From positions 1 to 20,390 of the IMG/VR virus record IMGVR_UViG_2579778982_000025: 20,390 nt of DNA; one strand, 5' to 3'. This DNA is from a virus. Its lineage: Duplodnaviria; Heunggongvirae; Uroviricota; Caudoviricetes. Under the pieces are notes generated by a model. That model saw nothing but the letters and a program-made list of their open reading frames with translations. It was not told the origin of the DNA and made no database searches. A program made the position numbers and the translations under genes. This document shows, in pieces, positions 3,701-20,325 of this stretch; the first letter of the stretch is position 1, and each line of letters begins with the position of its first letter.

Positions 3701-4765
3701 TTACACCTGTGCGACGTTATACCATGTGCCATTGATGTATTTTTGTATTGGCCTGAAGATGGCTTCATCATCGCCATCTACTTCACCAATGATTCTTAAT
3801 CCGGTAATTGCGTGTCCGGCTTTTTCATAACGACCACCACGCGCCATCAATTGAACAACACGTGTGCCAAGTCGGACATCTCTCACATAGCGTGAGTCAA
3901 AATTGCCATAATTGTCGGGAATAACTTGCGCACCACAAAGCCAGTTACCGTTATTATCCATGTACGCCTGACCATCGGTGCCATTGGCTGTCCTTGAGTT
4001 ATTAATCATGTAGATGCCAAATTGCTTGTTCCCCAGTCCACCTATCATGAACTTTCGGTCGGCGTGATTCTGGCGAAGTAACGCCTGAGCGCTATCAGTG
4101 TTAACTATATTTTTCCCAAAGATAGCGTTGTTATCGCGCATCTGAATCCACATACCATTACTGCTGTTAATAGCAAAACGGTCTGAAAGTGTCTCCCCTG
4201 AAACATTAAGACCACGCCCCATCGAAACAGCGCCAGTAGCGTTATTAATCCATAATGGCCTTAATCCGTTATAAGTCCCCATGTTGTCACCGGAGTTTGT
4301 CAACATGAAGTATGTATCTGAACCATCATTACGAATAAAGAATCCGTAATTACCATAAGCAATACGTAGGCCGTTTGCTGATTTTGATATGACTTCGCCA
4401 TTTACAATGGCATTGACAAGAACATACAAAGCATCCCATTTAAGATTCATCAGGTCTTTTGTTGTGGTACTTTGTTTGCTTCTCCATTTGAAATATTCAT
4501 TGCCGTTGTCGCCTGTCTCAAACCACATGTATGAATCAGTGTCACCATCGGCATCATTTTTAAATCCAATCTTCGCCCAGTCAGTATTTCGAATCCAAGC
4601 AAGGATTGAGTCATTTTCAAAAGTAAGCCCACCGGACAAGGTATCGCCATTCTTTTGCACGGCGTTACCAACCCTGTTTACCGTTTCCTGCAAACCGAGG
4701 TTTTTGAGAATTGCCTCTGTGTCGTCTGGACGATATTTTTTTCCGCTTTTAGCAACAATCGCGGT
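3701..4765 (-). CDS. tail fibre protein, alternative variable C-terminal module, fused to a 24-codon remnant of a constant region
   Basis: Minus-strand frame is open from the stop at 4766-4768 down to 3701. Passes through the right crossover site with the same NLGLQETVN codons as the left module. Only 24 codons (TAIVAKSGKKYRPDDTEAILKNLG) lie outside the site. C-terminus ...IQKYINGTWYNVAQV. The ORF-track start at 4693 is a TTG inside the crossover site. Confidence 0.7.
   Translation of the reverse strand, partial: TAIVAKSGKKYRPDDTEAILKNLGLQETVNRVGNAVQKNGDTLSGGLTFENDSILAWIRNTDWAKIGFKNDADGDTDSYMWFETGDNGNEYFKWRSKQSTTTKDLMNLKWDALYVLVNAIVNGEVISKSANGLRIAYGNYGFFIRNDGSDTYFMLTNSGDNMGTYNGLRPLWINNATGAVSMGRGLNVSGETLSDRFAINSSNGMWIQMRDNNAIFGKNIVNTDSAQALLRQNHADRKFMIGGLGNKQFGIYMINNSRTANGTDGQAYMDNNGNWLCGAQVIPDNYGNFDSRYVRDVRLGTRVVQLMARGGRYEKAGHAITGLRIIGEVDGDDEAIFRPIQKYINGTWYNVAQV
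4685..4710. repeat. right inversion crossover site (inverted partner of 1635-1660)
   Basis: Plus strand ttcctgcaaaccgaggtttttgagaa; reverse complement aligns to the left site with 3 mismatches. Confidence 0.8.
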
Positions 4766-5473: not shown

Positions 5474-5511
5474 TTATGATTGTGGGTGTCTGGTTGGAAA
5501 CTGACCAGATA

Positions 5512-5630
5512 TGGAAACAAAAAGCCCGCAGATAAATCTGCGGGCTTCTTGCGACATCCACGGAAAACCAACAACAACAATCCATGGGCGCCTCGACAAC
5601 TCCCATTATACGTTGGTTTTCCGTGGACGC
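5512..5630 (-). ncRNA. candidate CopA-like antisense RNA of the repA leader (IncFII-type copy-number control)
   Basis: Two hairpins in the repA leader. A long stem-loop has a 15-bp stem ccacggaaaaccaac (5558-5572) / gttggttttccgtgg (5612-5626) and a ~39-nt loop. On the minus strand it is followed by aagcccgcaga-ttta-tctgcgggctt (5522-5547) and then a T-run (complement of 5509-5520), a rho-independent terminator oriented for minus-strand transcription. The RNA ends are not mapped. Confidence 0.45.
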
Positions 5631-5642
5631 AAGAGCGAACAT

Positions 5643-6491
5643 ATGGATAGACCAATGCCGTCTCTACGTTCCGCTTACGTTTGTAATTTGTCGCCGGAGT
5701 TCCAGCCTCCAAAGCACCATACGCACAAGCTGCCGCTGGTGTTATCTGATGCTTTACAGCGCATTAATGGGCGTGATCTTACGTGTGAGGTTGCGTTCTA
5801 CGTTAATCAACCGTCAGAGCGGAAGCGCCGGATAAACGAGCATCGTCGTCGGGCGATTAATGCTGTGATCGCTGCGATTTTGCACCATGTAAACATCATT
5901 TCTAAGCGGGTTCTGGCTAGTGCTGAGGCGTTGGCTGATTTTTGCGGCCTGTCTACCGTATCCGAAGCTGGGAACAAGTCTATAACGCGCTGTACAAGGG
6001 CGTTGTCGCAACTGAAAGCGTTAGGGTTTATTGATTATGAACGTCGCTGGGATCGGGTGAATAAACAGTATTGGCCAGCGAAAATAGAGATTCGTGATCA
6101 ACTGCTGGAAACCGTTGGTATTACTGAACAAGCATGGAGACGTGCGGTTAGCCAGAAACTTAATTACTTCAATGCGAAGAATAGCGAACGGCTTAAAAAA
6201 GCGATAACGGAGGCTGATTATAAGCGTATTGTTATTCAGGAGCAGATGGAGAATGTATGGCGTCAGAGGAAGACGGCCAGAGAGATAAAGGCAAAACAGA
6301 AAGCAGCGGAGAGAGCTGCGCGTCTTGTTCGGGAAAAGGGAGAGGCCGAACTTCGTCATCAAATCACTAGAGAGGTTAGCCAGGAATTTGCTGATGGCAT
6401 GTATCCTGGAGCTGACCTTGCATATTTACGATCCCTCGTTGAGCAGCGTTATAACAGGTTAAGAAAGACCTGGAAATCACTCCAACATTAA
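5643..6491 (+). CDS. repA: plasmid replication initiator RepA (IncFII RepA1-like)
   Basis: ...GNKSITRCTRALSQLKALGFIDYERRWD... resembles the R100/R1 RepA1 motif (..KLSITRATRALTFLSELGLITYQ..), with an Arg/Lys-rich C-terminal half. Preceded by antisense-RNA-like hairpins and followed by a DnaA box plus AT-rich region. Start at ATG 5643 (MDRPMPSLRS...) is preferred because the ORF-track start at 5511 lies inside the antisense terminator hairpin. An IncFII-type leader peptide may exist in another frame ending at 5648-5650, but I cannot place its start. Confidence 0.75.
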   Translation: MDRPMPSLRSAYVCNLSPEFQPPKHHTHKLPLVLSDALQRINGRDLTCEVAFYVNQPSERKRRINEHRRRAINAVIAAILHHVNIISKRVLASAEALADFCGLSTVSEAGNKSITRCTRALSQLKALGFIDYERRWDRVNKQYWPAKIEIRDQLLETVGITEQAWRRAVSQKLNYFNAKNSERLKKAITEADYKRIVIQEQMENVWRQRKTAREIKAKQKAAERAARLVREKGEAELRHQITREVSQEFADGMYPGADLAYLRSLVEQRYNRLRKTWKSLQH

Positions 6492-6599: not shown

Positions 6600-6740
6600 A
6601 AATATCGCCTTCACAGGCATCGGCTAATAAAGTTATCCACAGTTTTGATATGTATATGCAAATGGTTTTTTATAATAGATGCACTAAACAAATAAATGCA
6701 AAATCACTTTCTTTTATTAAGACTTTCTTTATTTAACTTA
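6600..6740. other. putative replication origin (DnaA box plus AT-rich unwinding region)
   Basis: Perfect DnaA box TTATCCACA at 6633-6641, ~140 bp downstream of repA, followed by ~100 bp of very AT-rich sequence (6642-6740). Matches the repA-then-oriR layout of IncFII replicons. Confidence 0.5.
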
Positions 6741-7134
6741 CGCAGGCTTTGCCTGTGAATATGTTCGCCCTTGCAGCGAGCTAAAGCTCGCGCCGGTTCG
6801 AGTCGCTACGCTCAAATATACCTCCTCCGGCACTTGCCGGAGGCATGGAGCAGCCTGATCATCCTTTTCGAAACGGCGCGTTTCGAACTATACAAAATCA
6901 ATTTATATAAGGCCGAAATGAGGCCTACGGCCGGGCTTTGCAGGAGGAAGGAGCGAGCCTTATCGATAAACGTCGATAAATACGCACACAGTAGCCATCA
7001 GAACGCGATAAAACGTAAGAAACATCATTTCCTATTAGACATAGAAAACTTGTCTTATACGCAATGTAGTAAATTTCTATTGCCACATAGGAAAAGATTT
7101 CCTACCATCGTAGATATAATAAATGGAGATGGTT

Positions 7135-7422
7135 ATGGATAAAGATACTGTTTTAAAAATGTTGAATCCGGCTTGTTTAAAAAAAGCGGATGAATGGGAA
7201 TCTCCTACATGTGGAGAAGTTCGGGCAGTCATTGGCCTGACCGGAATGAGCGGCTCGCAGTTGGCCAAAAAACTAGGCTTAAAAGATAGTCGCAATGTTC
7301 GCAACTGGCAGATGTTAAAGGAGTCCACATCCAGATCCAGCATTCCGTATGCAGCCTGGGCGCTGCTGTGTTACTTCGCTGGGTTAGGGTTAATCTTCAT
7401 TGATAACAAAACAGATGTTTGA
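7135..7422 (+). CDS. hypothetical protein with putative HTH motif and hydrophobic C-terminus
   Basis: ATG 7135 preceded by GGAG (7125-7128). 95 aa, MDKDTVLKMLNPACLKKADEWESPTCGEVRAVIGLTGMSGSQLAKKLGL... ending in IPYAAWALLCYFAGLGLIFI. No family recognised. Confidence 0.5.
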   Translation: MDKDTVLKMLNPACLKKADEWESPTCGEVRAVIGLTGMSGSQLAKKLGLKDSRNVRNWQMLKESTSRSSIPYAAWALLCYFAGLGLIFIDNKTDV

Positions 7423-7445
7423 AACATGCAAATATGAGGTTTGTT

Positions 7446-7709
7446 ATGGAACTTGTACGCAAAACACGCAAAGAGTTCTTGGACCTGTATCGCATGGGAG
7501 CTTTCACTTGTGTTGTGGCTACCCAGGACGAAGTGACAAAAAGCTGGCGGCTTTTTGCTCTCAATAAAAAAGGGATTGCCGTTTTCATTGAAAAAGCCCG
7601 TGGTGGTATCCGCGAATGGGCGGGATTGAATTATGTGGCTGATTTTTGCGCAGCTATGGGGATTCGTCGCTGGGAAGTCCATATGCCAGGAGTAAAGTCA
7701 CAAAAATAG
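7446..7709 (+). CDS. hypothetical protein
   Basis: ATG 7446 preceded by GAGG with 6-nt spacing, 24 bp after the upstream gene, so likely one operon. 87 aa, MELVRKTRKEFLDLYRMGAFTCVVATQDEVTKSWRLFALNKKG.... ORF-track start 7419 is probably too long. Confidence 0.45.
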   Translation: MELVRKTRKEFLDLYRMGAFTCVVATQDEVTKSWRLFALNKKGIAVFIEKARGGIREWAGLNYVADFCAAMGIRRWEVHMPGVKSQK

Positions 7710-7891
7710 GGCTTTCGCGTCGAAAATGAGGCGAAACTGAAAACGAGATTTCATTAACAAATAAGCAACATAAAAAACGGTGGAAAACGCCCAGGAAAAC
7801 ATGATCTTTTGAGCGGATTTTTTAGATCCGACAATGAACGGTGATCCGGTGGTGCCGATAACGTCCATTATGTTAAATAGCCCCGTTTTTC

Positions 7892-7945
7892 TTGAAATTA
7901 TAACCTACGGGTTATATAGTTAGTGATATAAACTACAGGTTATAG
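7892..7945 (+). promoter_or_regulatory. sigma70-type promoter with two operator palindromes for the toxin-antitoxin operon
   Basis: TTGAAA (7892-7897) - 17 bp - TATAGT (7915-7920). Inverted repeats tataacc-tacg-ggttata (about 7899-7916) and atataaactacaggttatag (7926-7945) overlap the -10 and start region. RBS AGGA at 7944-7947. Confidence 0.55.
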
Positions 7946-7953
7946 GATTGAGC

Positions 7954-8301
7954 ATGTGGACGGTACTTTTTAGCCAGCGATTTGACGACTGGCTAAATGA
8001 GCAAGAAGACGCTCTTCAGGAAAAGGTTTTGGCTGATTTGAAAAAGCTACAGGTTTACGGACCTGAGTTACCCAGGCCATATGCCGATACCGTAAAAGGT
8101 TCTCGGTACAAAAATATGAAAGAGCTTCGCGTTCAGTTTTCTGGCCGTCCGATAAGAGCCTTTTATGCGTTCGATCCGATTCGCCGGGCCATCGTTCTTT
8201 GTGCAGGAGACAAAAGTAACGATAAACGGTTTTATGAAAAACTGGTGCGTATAGCTGAGGATGAGTTTGCAGCACATCTGAACACACTGGAGAGCAAGTA
8301 A
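7954..8301 (+). CDS. higB: type II toxin, RelE/ParE superfamily (HigB-like, phage Gp49-type addiction-module killer)
   Basis: MWTVLFSQRFDDWLNEQEDALQEKVLADLKKLQVYGPELPRPYADTVKGSRYKNMKELRVQFSGRPIRAFYAFDPIRRAIVLCAGDKSNDKRFYEKL.... Toxin-first order. Stop TAA overlaps the ATG of the downstream HTH gene by 1 nt. The ORF-track start 7948 is a TTG; ATG 7954 has the RBS. Confidence 0.7.
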   Translation: MWTVLFSQRFDDWLNEQEDALQEKVLADLKKLQVYGPELPRPYADTVKGSRYKNMKELRVQFSGRPIRAFYAFDPIRRAIVLCAGDKSNDKRFYEKLVRIAEDEFAAHLNTLESK

Positions 8302-8600
8302 TGAGAACATTAGATGAGGTGATTGCCAGCCGTTCACCTGAAAGCCAGGCGCGAATTAAAGAAATGGCAGATGAGATGATTCTTGAGGTCGGCTTGCAGA
8401 TGATGCGTGAAGAACTCCAGTTATCACAAAAACAGGTTGCTGAGGCGATGGGTATAAGCCAGCCAGCAGTAACAAAGCTGGAGCAGCGCGGAAATGATTT
8501 AAAGCTGGCGACGTTAAAACGTTACGTTGAAGCTATGGGAGGCAAATTAAGCCTGGATGTTGAGCTTCCCACAGGAAAGCGAGTAGCGTTCCATGTCTAA
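8301..8600 (+). CDS. higA: type II antitoxin, XRE-family HTH (HigA-like)
   Basis: 99 aa with central HTH (LSQKQVAEAMGISQPAVTKLEQ). Translationally coupled to the upstream toxin gene. Confidence 0.7.
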   Translation: MRTLDEVIASRSPESQARIKEMADEMILEVGLQMMREELQLSQKQVAEAMGISQPAVTKLEQRGNDLKLATLKRYVEAMGGKLSLDVELPTGKRVAFHV

Positions 8601-8612
8601 CATAATGTAAGT

Positions 8613-8640
8613 GTAAGGCCCCATTGGGGCCTTACTTATT
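8613..8640. terminator. bidirectional terminator
   Basis: gtaaggcccc-attg-gggccttac hairpin followed by ttatttactt, between convergent genes. Confidence 0.6.
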
Positions 8641-8997: not shown

Positions 8998-9085
8998 CTG
9001 AAATGTCTTTTTCAAGACCTTGCCAATAAGCTAAACAAAAATGTTTAATCATTCGCCTAAAAAAACACCAGTCACTATTATTTAT

Positions 9086-9186
9086 ATAATTATATATTTA
9101 TATAAAAAGTGCTTTACAGGTGGGAAAAAATTTCCTAAGGTTATACCCGAAACCGAGCGATACCCGCCCTGGTTAAACCGGAGATA
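9086..9186 (+). promoter_or_regulatory. repeated promoter / 5'UTR cassette, copy 1
   Basis: Near-identical to 19153..19252. Contains TTTACA - 17 bp - TAAGGT (TATGGT in copy 2) promoter-like hexamers, a ~55-nt leader and a GGAG RBS, preceded by AT-rich palindromes. Confidence 0.5.
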
Positions 9187-9191
9187 ACCCG

Positions 9192-9572
9192 ATGAGCATG
9201 ATTAAAATCCGCAAAAACGCTTTCCTTAAAATTCAAACTATCCTGGCTGGTTCTGTTGGCGTGATTTGCCGTTCTTCTTCAAGCCGCATCGATGACGGCT
9301 ACGATGATGAGTACCGTGTGTCCTCGTGCGATGAGGCTTTAACCTGGCTGAAGGAGAATCAGGAACGTGCCCAGGTATATCTGGAAACAGAGAACGGCAA
9401 TCAGATGCTGCGTATTAGCGGTCGTTATGGATTTGAAACTACATTCATGGCCTATTTTAATCAGGCTTACTTTGACAAGGAGTTGGCCTGGTACACTGAT
9501 CGCATGAGCAAAAGCGAGCCAGCCCCGATTACACCGCCGAACAATAAACCATTTTTATTCCTCGTTAAGTAA
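9192..9572 (+). CDS. hypothetical protein
   Basis: 126-aa ORF driven by the repeated promoter cassette. Acidic, no recognisable motif. Confidence 0.5.
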   Translation: MSMIKIRKNAFLKIQTILAGSVGVICRSSSSRIDDGYDDEYRVSSCDEALTWLKENQERAQVYLETENGNQMLRISGRYGFETTFMAYFNQAYFDKELAWYTDRMSKSEPAPITPPNNKPFLFLVK

Positions 9573-9580
9573 ACACAATA

Positions 9581-9607
9581 CGCAAAGTGTCATTTTGACA
9601 CTTTGCG
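9581..9607. promoter_or_regulatory. 27-bp perfect palindrome (hairpin or operator)
   Basis: cgcaaagtgtca-ttt-tgacactttgcg, 9 nt after the 9192..9572 stop and 29 nt before the XRE-family gene. No U-tract follows, so it is an operator or RNA stability element rather than a classic terminator. Confidence 0.4.
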
Positions 9608-9635
9608 AGTGTTAATATTGTGCGAGGAGGATGCT

Positions 9636-9908
9636 ATGACGGGTTATGAATTGAAATTATGGCGTCGTGGGATGAACTGGACGCAGGAGCGAGCCGCCGA
9701 AGAATTTGGGATATCGTTGGCTACATATAAGCGATATGAGAAGGGGGAGCCGCCGAGGGTCATTGAGATGGCCATTCGCGTTCTGTCGTTTGACGATATG
9801 GTGAAGGATCTTTCACACCTTGATAAAGACGCGATTCTGTTAAGGCTGCAAACCCTTGTATGGGAAAAGGTTAAAGTGTCGTCAGAATTGGAACAAGGGA
9901 TCAAATGA
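9636..9908 (+). CDS. XRE-family HTH transcriptional regulator
   Basis: MTGYELKLWRRGMNWTQERAAEEFGISLATYKRYEKGE.... RBS GAGGAGG (9624-9630). The ORF-track start 9603 is upstream of the RBS. Confidence 0.7.
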   Translation: MTGYELKLWRRGMNWTQERAAEEFGISLATYKRYEKGEPPRVIEMAIRVLSFDDMVKDLSHLDKDAILLRLQTLVWEKVKVSSELEQGIK

Positions 9909-11188: not shown

Positions 11189-11216
11189 AAGCGCCCAAAT
11201 CGGGCGCTTTGTTTTA
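11189..11216. terminator. bidirectional terminator
   Basis: aagcgccc-aaatc-gggcgctt followed by tgtttt, between convergent genes. Confidence 0.6.
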
Positions 11217-12356
11217 TGGTTTTGCACCTGCGGCCAGTTTATCCGCCGATATCTTTATCAGTTCCTGTAGTGTCCTGGCTGGTAGGTTTGCATCCAGTAC
11301 GCTGAGTATGCTGCTGTGATCTGCCTGGTCGACTACTTTGCCTGTCGGTGGTAGTAGCTTGAGCTGAGGATTCAGGTTTTCGTCAAAGCTGATCAGTGCT
11401 CTGGCGTTTCTGAGCAGATCAAGAAGTAAGGCTGATATCACATTTTCCTGAGTCATTGCTGGCAGATTTAGCGCCGCTTTGGTTTTCCCTGTTGCCTTGT
11501 CAAACTCCTTGATTAGTTCCTTCCTGTAGTTCGGTTCCGTTAATAGCCGATTATGCTCTGTTGCCGCGCGGATAATCGTTTTTTCCTGGTACAGTCGTTT
11601 AGCCAGATCACGCTCGTACTGTGTTTTTAACACGCTGCTGATAGCGTTAAAGGCTTCAATGTAGGCCAGCTTGATATCTTTCACGCTTGGACCGTCGATG
11701 CTCTCCATGAGTAAGGTAAATCCGTCTTTTGTCATGCGATAGATTGTTATTTCGCGGTCGCTTCCTTCCAGCGGTCGTTGCTCTTTAAAGAAGTGACGCG
11801 CCGCAGCCGTGCGAGGAATGCGTAGCGCATCGATGGCCATAACGATGGAATTGTTTGTGGTGCTGAATGCCTGGGCAACATCGGCTGAGGTTGTGAGTGG
11901 CTCGTTGTTGCACACTTTAATGTAAAACATCGGTTTGGCGTTGAGCGTATCGACAACCTCACGAGCATTGTTTGGCGAGACGGTAACGGTCGCGGCCGTT
12001 TGCGCGTTCTGGTTGAAGTAGCAGTCTTCCAGCCGTTCGAACACATCCCACGCTTGGTTAGTTTCAAGCATTTTGGCGTGACGTGCAGCCCCGCGTTCGG
12101 TCCAGAGGATTAGTTTTCTAACGTTATTCGCGATGGTTTGAAAATCTCTTAAAGAGATTTTCAAACTTTGGAGATCTGTACCTTTTACAACTATGAAATG
12201 TTTTCCTTCTGTAAACCGGGACTTATTACGGTGGTGATTTCTGTGAAGACATTCGACGCTACAGCCATATAGTTTGGCAAGCAGCTCCGTGGTGATAACG
12301 GGGATCTGGTTATGCAGGATAGGCTGTAGGGTGTTAACGGTCGGAAGCGTTTTCAT
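11214..12356 (-). CDS. phage antirepressor-like protein (ORF6N/Rha-type N-terminal DNA-binding domains, long C-terminal region)
   Basis: 380 aa. N-terminal ...ITTELLAKLYGCSVECLHRNHHRNKSRFTEGKHFIVVKG... resembles ORF6N-type antirepressor domains; a second similar segment ...TTSADVAQAFSTTNNSIVMAIDAL follows. Family assignment is from memory of motifs only. Confidence 0.55.
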   Translation of the reverse strand: MKTLPTVNTLQPILHNQIPVITTELLAKLYGCSVECLHRNHHRNKSRFTEGKHFIVVKGTDLQSLKISLRDFQTIANNVRKLILWTERGAARHAKMLETNQAWDVFERLEDCYFNQNAQTAATVTVSPNNAREVVDTLNAKPMFYIKVCNNEPLTTSADVAQAFSTTNNSIVMAIDALRIPRTAAARHFFKEQRPLEGSDREITIYRMTKDGFTLLMESIDGPSVKDIKLAYIEAFNAISSVLKTQYERDLAKRLYQEKTIIRAATEHNRLLTEPNYRKELIKEFDKATGKTKAALNLPAMTQENVISALLLDLLRNARALISFDENLNPQLKLLPPTGKVVDQADHSSILSVLDANLPARTLQELIKISADKLAAGAKP

Positions 12357-12640
12357 TTTGCACCTCCCATAACTACTTTGGTTACGAGGGAGATTTTTGC
12401 GTCAGAAACAGCGTTATCGTTGCTGGCGATGCGCATAGCTTCGCGCTCGATGATTTCAGCCAGGCGGAATTTATCGGCGTATGAGGCTTTCTTGAGAAGG
12501 ATCTTTACGAGGTTGACGTAATAGTCATGGGGTAAGTTTGTCATGATGATAGTTCCAGTTTTGATATTGGAATAATCACCACCGCTGACGCCAATCAGTG
12601 AGGTGGTGAGACGTACAGGGTTGGCGTAACCGGTCATCAT
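12353..12640 (-). CDS. hypothetical protein
   Basis: Stop overlaps the start of the antirepressor-like gene in an ATGA arrangement, suggesting translational coupling. Start ambiguous between 12640 and an internal ATG (MTNLPHD...). Confidence 0.4.
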   Translation of the reverse strand: MMTGYANPVRLTTSLIGVSGGDYSNIKTGTIIMTNLPHDYYVNLVKILLKKASYADKFRLAEIIEREAMRIASNDNAVSDAKISLVTKVVMGGAK

Positions 12641-12844
12641 GATACCCGGCGAGCCTTACGGCTCCCCCGCACGCCCCACCATAATTCGGGTGTAGCTGTG
12701 CTTTACGCATAAAAAAACCGCTAACGCGGTATGCGCCATGATGATTATCGGGACGCCAATCCCGACCGTAGATTTTGCTACGGCTCGGAAAGTGTCCACC
12801 AATGGCGCATTTATGTCAATACAGCGGGATTTTAACAGACTAAA

Positions 12845-13739: not shown

Positions 13740-13971
13740 GTAGGTTACTGATTTTGTGAAAATAAACTGTTTTTTTCGTTTAATTTCTTTCCTATTACTA
13801 ATCTTAAAATAATCGTAAAATACCTGTGGACCTTCCCGCCGATTCGCACCCGGGCACCGACTTTAGGGGAGGATTTCCTGTTGCCGTACATGCAAGCACA
13901 AGCAGCCGTGCTTGCTCTCGCGTTGTTTTCGTCGGTGGGGATGTCGTGAAACGGCCTGTAAGGGCCACACA

Positions 13972-14094
13972 ATGAAAAAATACTACATGTGTATTTTTAT
14001 CGTTGTTACTGGAGCTTTGTTTACGCCACATGGGGAGGGTTGGAAGATTACTGATAACGCTCTGAATGTGACGATAAACATTAGCAGCAAGTAG
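13972..14094 (+). CDS. small hydrophobic peptide (40 aa), candidate small membrane protein or type I toxin
   Basis: MKKYYMCIFIVVTGALFTPHGEGWKITDNALNVTINISSK. RBS AGGG 7 nt upstream. Strong terminator immediately downstream. Confidence 0.4.
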   Translation: MKKYYMCIFIVVTGALFTPHGEGWKITDNALNVTINISSK

Positions 14095-14099
14095 CGATT

Positions 14100-14123
14100 A
14101 GGCCCCTTCGGGGGCCTTTTTTA
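14100..14123 (+). terminator. rho-independent terminator
   Basis: aggcccc-ttcg-ggggcct followed by tttttta. Confidence 0.7.
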
Positions 14124-19088: not shown

Positions 19089-19152
19089 AAGTGTCATTTT
19101 GAGCTGTTTTGATGGTGTGTAGACATCGGGAACATCGAAAATCTATAAATAT

Positions 19153-19252
19153 ATAATTATAGATTTATATAAAAAGTGCTTTACAGGTGGGAAAAAATTT
19201 CCTATGGTTATACCCGAAACCGAGCGATACTCGCCCTGGTTAAACCGGAGAA
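19153..19252 (+). promoter_or_regulatory. repeated promoter / 5'UTR cassette, copy 2
   Basis: About 95% identical to 9086..9186 (offset ~10,066-10,068 bp). TTTACA - 17 bp - TATGGT, shared leader, GGAG RBS. Confidence 0.5.
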
Positions 19253-19257
19253 ATCTG

Positions 19258-20325
19258 ATGAATAAACAAGTAATTATTTCTGACTGGATCAACAACCCTA
19301 ACAGCCTGTTAAGCACTGATACTGGCTACCTATTACGCCATGTTAATGGTCGTATGGTCAAAAGCGATGAGCACGAAACCTTTTTCTTTGTTGAAGACGA
19401 TGGGCGTATCTATGAGGATGGTTACTCTTATGAAGCCCAAACTGGTTGTATCCCTGCGGAGCTGGTGGACGTAACAGAAGATCTGCGCAAAGCATGGCTT
19501 GAACAGCAGCAGCGCGGAGATGATTACGTAAACACCTATCAGGAACGCCAGAACGCGCGTCTTGCCCGATATATTGCTCGTGCAGAAAAAGCCAGAAAAG
19601 AAGGTGCGGTAGCGCATAAGCGAGCGCATGACCTGTTGGATGTGATCCCGTTAGGCCAGCCGATTTTAGTTGACCATTATAGCGCGAAAGGCCATCGCCG
19701 CCGTTTGTCTAAAGCTGATGCGTTATTCAGAAAAGCGTTTGTTGAATGCGAAAGTAAAGCATCACACTACGAGAGCAAAGCCGCTGGTGTTGGTCGTAAT
19801 GGAATTTCGTCTGATGATCCTGATGCGCTATTTAAGTTGCTTCGTAAGCTGCAAGGCTGCATGAAGTCACACGTCAAAATGAAGGCCGCAAATAAGGCCA
19901 TTCGCAAATACAAAAAAGACCAATTACAGCAGCTTTCTGCATTAATCGATCTCAGGTTTACAGAAAGCGAAGCCAAAGAGTTACTGGCCGGAGATTTCTG
20001 TGGGCGCATCGGATTCCCTTCATACGCACTGAGCAACAATAACGCCGAAATCAAACGACTACAGAGCCGTATTAAGGAGCTTGAATCGGTCAAGTCTGTA
20101 ACAGGGGCACAGCGCGAAGAATACGACGGCTTTTCTATGGAGATAGATCCAGAGGATAACCGCATCCTGTTTTATTTCCCTGGCAAACCAGAGGCAAACA
20201 TTCGTTCGCTGCTTAAATCACGCGCCTTTAAGTGGAGTCCAACCCGTAATGCATGGGTTCGCAAGATTACTCCAAACGCCCTGGCTGATGCCCGATATCT
20301 AAAAGAATCGCTATTGAAAGCCTGA
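19258..20325 (+). CDS. DUF3560-like protein
   Basis: 355 aa from ATG 19258 (RBS GGAG); the ORF-track start 19204 lies in the shared leader. C-terminal half (...DDPDALFKLLRKLQGC...FPGKPEANIRSLLKSRAFKWSPTRNAWVRKIT) resembles DUF3560 proteins of plasmids and phages, from memory. Confidence 0.55.
   Translation: MNKQVIISDWINNPNSLLSTDTGYLLRHVNGRMVKSDEHETFFFVEDDGRIYEDGYSYEAQTGCIPAELVDVTEDLRKAWLEQQQRGDDYVNTYQERQNARLARYIARAEKARKEGAVAHKRAHDLLDVIPLGQPILVDHYSAKGHRRRLSKADALFRKAFVECESKASHYESKAAGVGRNGISSDDPDALFKLLRKLQGCMKSHVKMKAANKAIRKYKKDQLQQLSALIDLRFTESEAKELLAGDFCGRIGFPSYALSNNNAEIKRLQSRIKELESVKSVTGAQREEYDGFSMEIDPEDNRILFYFPGKPEANIRSLLKSRAFKWSPTRNAWVRKITPNALADARYLKESLLKA

Follow-up and report, generated by a model that had tools for sequence, protein, structure and literature searches.

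A predicted KorC-type repressor and an optional cargo gene next to the replication origin of an Escherichia coli phage-plasmid

What do two small genes do when they lie, side by side, between the replication origin and the toxin-antitoxin module of a phage-like element? We examined this question for IMG/VR virus record IMGVR_UViG_2579778982_000025 (Caudoviricetes), positions 1 to 20,390 (this whole stretch is called the window, and coordinates refer to it unless the complete element is named), in which the two genes, ORF1 and ORF2 (ORF, open reading frame), occupy positions 7135 to 7709. An initial annotation, made from the letters of the sequence, had described them as an unrecognised operon with either a replication- or maintenance-linked accessory function or a role as a small defence or anti-defence pair. 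From sequence comparisons we consider it likely that ORF1 encodes a KorC-type repressor of its own promoter and of a set of repeated "cassette" promoters, and that ORF2 is optional cargo of the operon. The assignment of ORF1 is much firmer than any statement on ORF2.

Sequence identity assigns the window to a ~48 kb phage-plasmid of E. coli, of the recently described p-p47 family, because the near-identical plasmids carry phage structural and lysis genes together with plasmid genes: the 2.2 kb around the operon is 98–99% identical to more than 50 circular E. coli plasmids of 46–50 kb, which encode tail, baseplate, capsid, terminase, lysis, IncFII-type repA, ParA and toxin-antitoxin genes. The complete element is also found in E. 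coli ATCC 25922 (NZ_CP009073.1), and it has been isolated as virions (Yersinia phages vB_YpM_39/41/44, with ORF2 100% identical). CP032086.1, a p-p47 member listed in a preprint, is among the matches as well. The host element is a non-mobilisable phage-plasmid; membership in the pSLy3 group was considered and rejected, p-p47 being distinct from pSLy3 (bioRxiv 10.64898/2026.08.19.745698).

Two genes in one predicted operon

ORF1 (korC-like; 7135–7422, + strand) encodes 95 amino acids (aa), from ATG at 7135 to TGA at 7420–7422, and is read here as an XRE-type helix-turn-helix (HTH) repressor, predicted to be an autoregulator and global regulator. ORF2 (7446–7709, + strand) encodes an 87-aa protein of isoelectric point 9.9, from ATG at 7446 to TAG at 7707–7709, belonging to PHROG 4595 and read as variable cargo of the operon. 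As the initial annotation had it, the two genes are small, share a strand and each have a ribosome-binding site (RBS), and the coordinates are exact: GGAG at 7125–7128 (+) and GAGG at 7436–7439 (+) each lie 6 nt 5' of the respective ATG. The spacing, given there as 24 bp, is a measured gap of 23 nt. RefSeq has the identical two coding sequences, as hypothetical proteins WP_000356589.1 (ORF1) and WP_000424604.1 (ORF2).

Both ORF1 and ORF2 are under strong purifying selection and are real genes, because the ratio of non-synonymous to synonymous substitution rates (dN/dS) is low in both. Between E. coli and Citrobacter, ORF2 has dN 0.12, dS 1.50 and dN/dS 0.08; for ORF1, dN is 0.09 with dS saturated, and the remaining ORF1 pairs have dN/dS of 0.04–0.06.

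A consensus scan places the predicted ORF1-ORF2 promoter at 7080–7108 (+ strand; −35 TTGCCA at 7080–7085, 17-nt spacer, −10 TACCAT at 7103–7108) and finds no promoter-like site on the + strand at 7108–7892, and so none inside the gap between the genes. ORF1 and ORF2 are thus almost certainly co-transcribed, as predicted from the 23-nt gap and the lack of any promoter-like site in that interval, and the two-gene operon on a single strand beside the replication origin holds up. The first strong intrinsic terminator 3' of the operon is at 8613–8635 (+), beyond the toxin-antitoxin genes, and no terminator-like site was found on the + strand at 7709–8613; transcripts from the ORF1 promoter may, on this prediction, read through to it. 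A hairpin at the junction (7403–7447, spanning the ORF1 stop and the ORF2 RBS) was considered as a translational coupler and found unsupported (−13.1 kcal/mol, z −1.29, 20 of 200 shuffles equal).

ORF1, a KorC-family protein, and its predicted operators

Sensitive profile searches and structure prediction, two of the checks that the initial annotation had proposed, led for ORF1 to an HTH domain of the KorC/AcrIF24 type, and for ORF2 to no informative family or fold. ORF1 shares 51% identity over 80 aa (E 4e-23) with the annotated KorC of plasmid R772, whose replicon is typed IncP in PLSDB and which we take to be of IncP-1 subgroup beta. The label "unrecognised" is thus not upheld for ORF1, while it stands for ORF2. 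The most divergent ORF1 homologue found (49% identity) occupies the korC position in an IncP-1-like plasmid with the order klcA-klcB-X-kleE-korA-incC-korB. ORF1 also agrees with the family in size and fold, being a 95-aa, single-domain HTH protein where the family has about 85–100 aa. No klcA, kle, korA or korB genes were found in the element, a feature that is contextual, not molecular. By sequence, size, operator geometry (described below) and number of sites, ORF1 is a KorC-family member. Pfam gave no ORF1 match and NCBIfam only a weak XRE-type match, and no KorC model in either was matched.

A tblastn search found ORF1 homologues in ~3,900 PLSDB plasmid records, 2,257 of them from Klebsiella. 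These are KorC-like HTH genes 27–35% identical to ORF1, several annotated korC but most under the names "hypothetical" or "transcriptional regulator", and their carriers include 63,589-bp Klebsiella, Enterobacter and E. coli plasmids. Judged by these sequence matches, the KorC-like family is far commoner than its name implies.

A PDB profile search with ORF1 and nine homologues gave the HTH domain of AcrIF24 (E 1.6e-7, 31–33% identity) and Aca3 (E 2e-3). The AlphaFold2 (AF2) model of ORF1 is all-helical with a predicted local distance difference test score (pLDDT) of 84, rising to ~90 across residues 72–81, and its best PDB fold matches are AcrIF24 (TM-score ~0.7 on the query), Aca1, Aca2, HipB and C-proteins, all of them dimeric XRE-type repressors of palindromic operators. 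The kinship in sequence between KorC and the DNA-binding domain of AcrIF24 is, as far as sequence comparison goes, a link previously unremarked: KorC goes unmentioned in the literature searched on Aca (anti-CRISPR-associated) proteins. Searches of the literature for accession and PHROG numbers gave no match.

Of the two features noted at the outset for ORF1, the HTH motif stands, and the hydrophobic tail is there as sequence. No stretch is better conserved in the KorC family than the tail, IPYAAWALLCYFAGLGLIF; AF2 models it with confidence as a helix, and its aligned segment in AcrIF24 contains the dimer-interface residue Y217. Because it forms the conserved last helix of a KorC/AcrIF24-type HTH domain, the model points to a role in the protein core or in dimerisation and not to membrane anchoring.

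We applied phylogenetic footprinting to the 260 nt upstream of ORF1 homologues in seven phage-plasmids (E. coli, Citrobacter, Klebsiella aerogenes, Enterobacter, Serratia and two metagenomic ones). The sole strongly conserved upstream block is TTGC(N4-5)-TAGGAAA-N3-TTTCCTA-CCATCG, and the stretch TTGC...CTACCATCG is the best-conserved part of the region across the seven. In the window this block holds the predicted operator O1 (7088–7104), a perfect 17-bp palindrome, TAGGAAAAGATTTCCTA, which begins 2 nt past the −35 hexamer and extends into the −10; a 17-bp palindrome overlapping the promoter is the operator arrangement of the KorC family. The palindrome TAGGAAA-N3-TTTCCTA is kept in six of the relatives, and Serratia carries a variant. 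Half-site-like repeats upstream of O1, at 7028–7048 (TTTCCTA...ATAGAAAA) and 7075–7081 (TTTCTAT), are present in the E. coli lineage only; not being conserved in relatives, they were not counted as operators.

Near-identical sites recur in a cassette of ~110 bp that comprises a promoter, an operator, a 5' leader and an RBS. The complete element has three copies, two of them in the window, each standing before a different accessory operon; the three operons are unrelated. Cassette copy 1 (9083–9195, + strand; −35 TTTACA) contains operator O2, TGGGAAAAAATTTCCTA, at 9121–9137, and heads a 126-aa ORF (9192–9572) and an HTH_3 ORF (9603–9908). Copy 2 (19150–19261, +) contains operator O3, again TGGGAAAAAATTTCCTA, at 19188–19204, and heads a DUF3560 gene (19258 to 20325) with its operon. 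Copy 3, at ~32535–32647 of the complete element, heads a two-gene operon. The two window copies are identical at 107 of 112 positions, and in every cassette the operator starts 2 nt after the −35 hexamer TTTACA. The arrangement looks like the copying of a regulated promoter as a finished unit. The 5' leader of the cassette was tried as a structured RNA and dropped (z −1.83, weak).

Such sites are more frequent than chance predicts. At three mismatches or fewer, the window has five operator matches against 1.17 expected, and none of 100 shuffles reaches five; at two or fewer, the complete ATCC 25922 element has five against 0.29 expected. One of these last five lies inside the antirepressor gene and is probably a chance match, which leaves four sites. 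The predicted operators thus number three in the window and four in the complete ATCC 25922 element, in keeping, at the sequence level, with the several sites per element of KorC. In the Citrobacter and K. aerogenes relatives, the promoter of the korC-like gene carries the perfect palindrome, and so does a second promoter, orthologous to cassette copy 1. The IncP-1 plasmids have palindromes of the same 17-bp length and with the same TAGG-N9-CCTA ends as O1: TAGGGCATTATGCCCTA in front of klcA, and TAGGACATTTTGCCCTA and TAGGGCATTTTGCCCTA in front of klcA and kleA; the IncP-1 promoters of klcA and kleA are repressed by KorC (PMC7314908).

In the mechanism that we propose, an ORF1 dimer would bind the 17-bp palindrome TAGGAAA-N3-TTTCCTA. 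On O1 it would keep RNA polymerase out, so that the ORF1-ORF2 transcript is negatively autoregulated, as is predicted from the position of O1 directly after the −35 and over the −10. It would shut off the cassette promoters too, where near-identical sites have the same position and each heads a short accessory operon; by occupying sites over the spacer and −10 of four promoters, ORF1 would exclude RNA polymerase from all of them. Because operator copies sit in the repeated cassette promoters too, ORF1 would be a global regulator of at least four operons, as KorC is in IncP-1 and IncU plasmids. In the plasmid-prophage state, ORF1 and ORF2 would be kept at a low, buffered level, given the one site in ORF1's own promoter. 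Upon entry into a repressor-free cell, all four promoters would fire until ORF1 accumulates, and would then be shut down to a low steady level, with ORF2 as an early or establishment factor riding on the repressor's transcript. Such an entry burst should be expected by analogy with the KorC/klcA and Aca/Acr (Acr, anti-CRISPR) circuits: RP4 klcA, which is KorC-controlled, shows ~120- to 220-fold zygotic induction on entering a new cell (PMC7314908), and a burst followed by repression has also been proposed for Aca-controlled acr operons.

KorC-like control of the lysis and structural genes was considered and rejected, since, barring antitermination, the cassette operons would already be closed by strong terminators, which lie at 29739 and 33133 of the complete element; the DUF3560 (O3) and two-gene (O4) operons of the complete ATCC 25922 element both end at strong terminators.

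Several points weigh against ORF1 as the repressor of this set of promoters. Repression in this element is read from sequence throughout. The three cassette operators have TGGGAAA, not TAGGAAA, in one arm, and the −10 elements of both the cassettes (TAAGGT or TATGGT) and ORF1 (TACCAT) match the consensus weakly. The korC-like gene is first in its own operon and resides on a phage-plasmid, whereas the classical korC closes the klcA operon on a conjugative plasmid. Finally, a second XRE-type HTH gene (9603–9908) lies downstream of O2, and its product could in principle be the binder. ORF1 is favoured over this second protein because, in the sequence examined of the Enterobacter loci, the sole operator sits at the promoter of the korC-like gene. 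The Serratia relative also bears on the link between ORF1 and the operator: its divergent KorC-like protein has the recognition helix RTIRKW where ORF1 has RNVRNW, and its element has three copies of the variant operator TAGGA(T/A)AAAAAGTCCTA. The recognition-helix residue that varies, position 57 of ORF1, corresponds in the alignment to K197 of AcrIF24, a residue that AcrIF24 needs to bind DNA (PMC9638941). Recognition helix and operator thus appear to co-vary in Serratia, and we counted this for the ORF1-operator link.

The position next to the origin invites another reading, close to one that the initial annotation offered, in which ORF1, alone or together with ORF2, influences the adjacent IncFII-type origin or the expression of RepA, comparable to the KorC of plasmid RA3, which acts indirectly through a promoter firing into oriV. 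The operon starts ~500 bp from the DnaA box, and ORF1 is next to repA in all relatives. The RA3 protein represses orf02prev, a gene whose transcription activates oriV, and when overproduced it leads to plasmid loss (PMC9455977). Moreover, the p-p47 high-copy mutant DA81419 has no mutation in the repA region and carries a single-nucleotide polymorphism in a "potential transcriptional regulator" (bioRxiv 10.64898/2026.08.19.745698). However, our scan of the window and the complete element found no operator copy at repA, whether inside or upstream of it, nor any around the origin, so a direct role in replication is not indicated, and the ORF1 promoter is directed away from the origin. The copy number of p-p47 is set by a CopA/CopT-RepA circuit, and 14 of the 15 sequenced copy-up mutants are in CopA/CopT, the classical IncFII control (bioRxiv 10.64898/2026.08.19.745698); the regulator mutated in the fifteenth is not specified, and the element has several HTH genes. 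A function in copy number is therefore quite unlikely in our judgement, and global regulation of accessory operons describes ORF1 better than a direct role in replication.

ORF2 and the surroundings of the operon

ORF2 matches PHROG 4595 end to end (E 1.8e-47); the PHROGs search returned only families of unknown function. In agreement with the absence of a recognisable motif noted earlier, sequence searches with ORF2 and 15 family members gave nothing in Pfam, NCBIfam, PADLOC or PDB. The AF2 model (moderate pLDDT of 71) is alpha/beta, in the order beta-alpha-beta3-alpha-beta, and showed no informative fold match, with no solved Acr or other PDB protein resembling it. An exhaustive profile search of 1.84 billion representatives returned only 27 hits, among which three long ones matching in several stretches were discarded as repetitive or low-complexity proteins with unrelated domains. 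A word-indexed search using a profile of 15 members returned 221 clusters; among the matches listed, all are from Enterobacterales and all named homologues are "hypothetical" or "bacteriophage protein". Common to the family are W34, an ARGG-REW-GL motif and, close to the C-terminus, WEVH (in full, W..(F/M)G...ARGG.REW.GL..L..F...G...WEVH). A relation to Kle-type proteins was tried and rejected (hhalign against R772 KleA, probability 0.1%).

Of the phage-plasmids, those of E. coli, Citrobacter and Serratia have ORF2 after the korC-like gene. It is missing from the relatives in K. aerogenes and Enterobacter and from the two metagenomic ones, and there a toxin-antitoxin module comes directly after the korC-like gene. 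In lambdoid phages and prophages the ORF2 homologue stands alone (e.g. SPN3UB gp57, FSL SP-016, Klebsiella prophages and many Salmonella prophages), in the accessory, nin-like region, at a site between variable accessory genes and the dinI-ninB-ninG-Q block, and once beside a Kiwa defence system. In one Salmonella prophage, the ORF2 homologue has no recognisable promoter or operator of its own; immediately downstream of it, at 3897–3925 of that prophage sequence, a LexA-box-like palindrome, TACTGTGTTTATATACAGT, is found upstream of dinI. Because each gene occurs without the other in relatives or prophages, ORF2 is, on these sequence comparisons, mobile, optional cargo and not a partner of ORF1.

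This distribution bears directly on whether the two genes form a toxin-antitoxin or modulator pair, with ORF1 as HTH antitoxin and ORF2 as toxin, or with ORF2 binding ORF1 to tune repression. The genes are small and adjacent with an autoregulated HTH gene first; ORF1 matches TIGR02612 ("mobile mystery protein A", an HTH partner of Fic-type proteins) weakly, at E 1e-4 and far below the cut-off; and the ORF2 core of a helix, three strands and a helix looks, in our own reading of the model's secondary structure, like a double-stranded-RNA-binding domain or HicA. Nevertheless, ORF2 homologues stand in hundreds of prophages and phages (one is indexed in 758 blocks of a contig collection) with no ORF1-like gene, where a lone toxin would not persist; ORF1 homologues are alone in several relatives and ~3,900 plasmids; and neither gene matches a PADLOC or toxin family. 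The mobility of ORF2 as cargo therefore rules out a toxin-antitoxin pair, and a type II pair in particular was rejected, as the genes do not obligately co-occur and ORF2 is without a Pfam, NCBIfam, PADLOC or PDB match. We regard any pair of this kind as highly improbable.

An anti-defence module of the Aca/Acr type, in which ORF1 is the repressor and ORF2 an inhibitor (anti-CRISPR, anti-restriction or other) expressed in a burst on entry and thereafter held down by ORF1, would be a special case of repressor plus cargo. Among solved structures, ORF1 comes closest to the Aca-type HTH of AcrIF24, Aca3, Aca1 and Aca2, and IncP-1 KorC represses the anti-restriction gene klcA (PMC7314908). ORF2 is small, patchy in presence and confined to phages and phage-plasmids, and in prophages it is placed in an accessory hot spot, near methyltransferases as well as the Kiwa system mentioned above. 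On the other hand, ORF2 has no likeness in sequence or fold to any solved Acr and no named homologue, no Aca-like gene is next to it in prophages, the repressor comes first here, which is the opposite of most acr-aca operons, and relatives retain ORF1 without ORF2, so ORF2 is not what ORF1 is for. An obligate functional pair is excluded by the separate occurrence of each gene, and of the defence or anti-defence idea first suggested, anti-defence is kept as a possible role of ORF2, through its association with an Aca-like repressor; as a module of the kind described it is possible but rather unlikely. A wider idea, that KorC is an unrecognised branch of Aca-type "entry-burst" repressors, with ORF2 and the cassette operons as an establishment or anti-defence set that fires a single time upon infection and ORF2 as a new anti-defence or exclusion protein, is offered tentatively and seems to us doubtful. 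If it were true, a family widespread in Salmonella and Klebsiella prophages would gain its first function. Taken as optional cargo under a KorC-type repressor, ORF2 is most likely an establishment or host-interaction factor, possibly for anti-defence or exclusion, rather than a partner of ORF1.

The operon is placed, as described in the initial annotation, between an origin and a toxin-antitoxin module. Upstream are the IncFII-type RepA gene (5511–6491) and a perfect DnaA box, TTATCCACA (6633–6641, + strand), with an AT-rich stretch after it; this is likely to be the oriR of the IncFII-type replicon and lies outside the operon. From the AT-rich origin to the ORF1 promoter, positions 6780–6960 are GC-rich, with several inverted repeats (e.g. 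CGCGCCGGTTCGA/TCGAAACGGCGCG and CCTCCGGCAAGTGCCGGAGG) and a block kept across relatives (AGGCC-TWC-GGCC...GCAGGA); the region may belong to oriR. Downstream, the toxin-antitoxin module (7948–8600) joins a toxin of the RelE/ParE family, for which relatives match Pfam Gp49, to an HTH antitoxin. The module has a promoter to itself (TTGAAA-17-TATAGT, within 7892–7944), across which lie two 18-bp palindrome copies, TATAACCTACGGGTTATA and TATAAACTACAGGTTATA, probably antitoxin operators judging from the sequence.

Three further observations concern the element at large. Rfam matches to C4 antisense RNA (81 bits; 12599–12686, − strand) and an isrK-like RNA (71 bits; 12711–12784, −) lie just upstream of an ORF6N/Rha-family gene (380 aa; 11214–12356, −) that we read as an antirepressor, a layout that resembles the c4-ant immunity arrangement (immI) of P1/P7. 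A full-length Rfam match to ryfA RNA (145 bits, E 1e-37) is found at 13826–14122 (+), on a phage-plasmid. Among the relatives, the Serratia marcescens plasmid CP083756.1 carries blaTEM-1 at 1–669, near its replication/korC-like region, which recalls the resistance-carrying p-p49 elements of the 2026 preprint.

Significance and comparison with known systems

The analysis gives a name to a gene that RefSeq calls hypothetical in 58 phage-plasmid records (at least 95% identity), including the plasmid of the quality-control strain ATCC 25922, and predicts its operator and regulon. A plasmid-type global control (KorC) was apparently adopted by a phage-plasmid lineage, where it would govern four self-contained accessory operons by way of a copied cassette. 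As the controlled operons consist almost wholly of genes of unknown function, the predicted circuit offers an experimental way in, and ORF2, from a widespread prophage family, becomes a reasonable candidate for functional screening. ORF1 differs from known KorC proteins, on the sequence evidence, in its operator sequence, the predicted autoregulation as first gene, the host element (a phage-plasmid whose replicon is IncFII-type) and the putative regulon; nothing here overturns or contradicts current understanding.

One of the closest known systems is that of the IncP-1 plasmids (RK2/RP4, R751 and R772), whose KorC is likewise a single-domain HTH protein, of 85–95 aa, and shares the C-terminal motif IPYAAWA(L/I)LC..AGLG with ORF1. 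There KorC represses several operons, klcA and kle (PMC7314908, PMC10871194). In both cases the 17-bp palindromes with TAGG...CCTA ends lie in promoters and occur in several copies per element. The interior of the operator differs (TAGGAAA-N3-TTTCCTA in the ORF1 element versus TAGGGCAT-N-ATGCCCTA in IncP-1), as does the recognition helix (RNVRNW versus RTIRRW). ORF1 is the first gene of a predicted autoregulated operon beside an IncFII-type origin, whereas IncP-1 korC is the last of klcA-klcB-korC; unlike in IncP-1, no KorA or KorB partners are seen, and the genes under predicted control are unrelated to the IncP-1 regulon, with no klcA or kle homologues among them.

KorC of the IncU plasmid RA3 is a global regulator encoded in a bicistronic korC-kfrC unit (PMC7414963). 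It resembles ORF1 in having operators in several modules, in being the first of two genes, and in a regulon near the replication module (PMC9455977), which is also the site of the ORF1 operon. In contrast to ORF1, with an operator in its own promoter, korCp of RA3 is reported as weak, constitutive and not autoregulated (PMC7414963), and in the ORF1 element no operator faces the origin. The second genes are set apart by their descriptions, not by sequence: KfrC is described as alpha-helical, whereas the model of ORF2 is mixed alpha/beta.

As a dimer, AcrIF24 represses its own operon, in whose promoter it binds a 17-bp inverted repeat (PMC9638941), and its HTH domain is the closest solved relative of ORF1. 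ORF1 adjoins a small accessory gene, and the inverted repeat in its promoter is a putative binding site. ORF1 differs from the Aca proteins and AcrIF24 in that it is without an Acr domain, ORF2 is not a known Acr, the repressor gene comes first, and other operons are predicted targets too. ORF2, in turn, is 43–49% identical to PHROG 4595 copies in lambdoid Salmonella, Klebsiella and Citrobacter prophages (e.g. SPN3UB gp57), sharing the full motif with them. No member of this family has a described function; it is a lone gene in lambdoid phages, whereas in the E. coli, Citrobacter and Serratia phage-plasmids it is joined to a korC-like gene.

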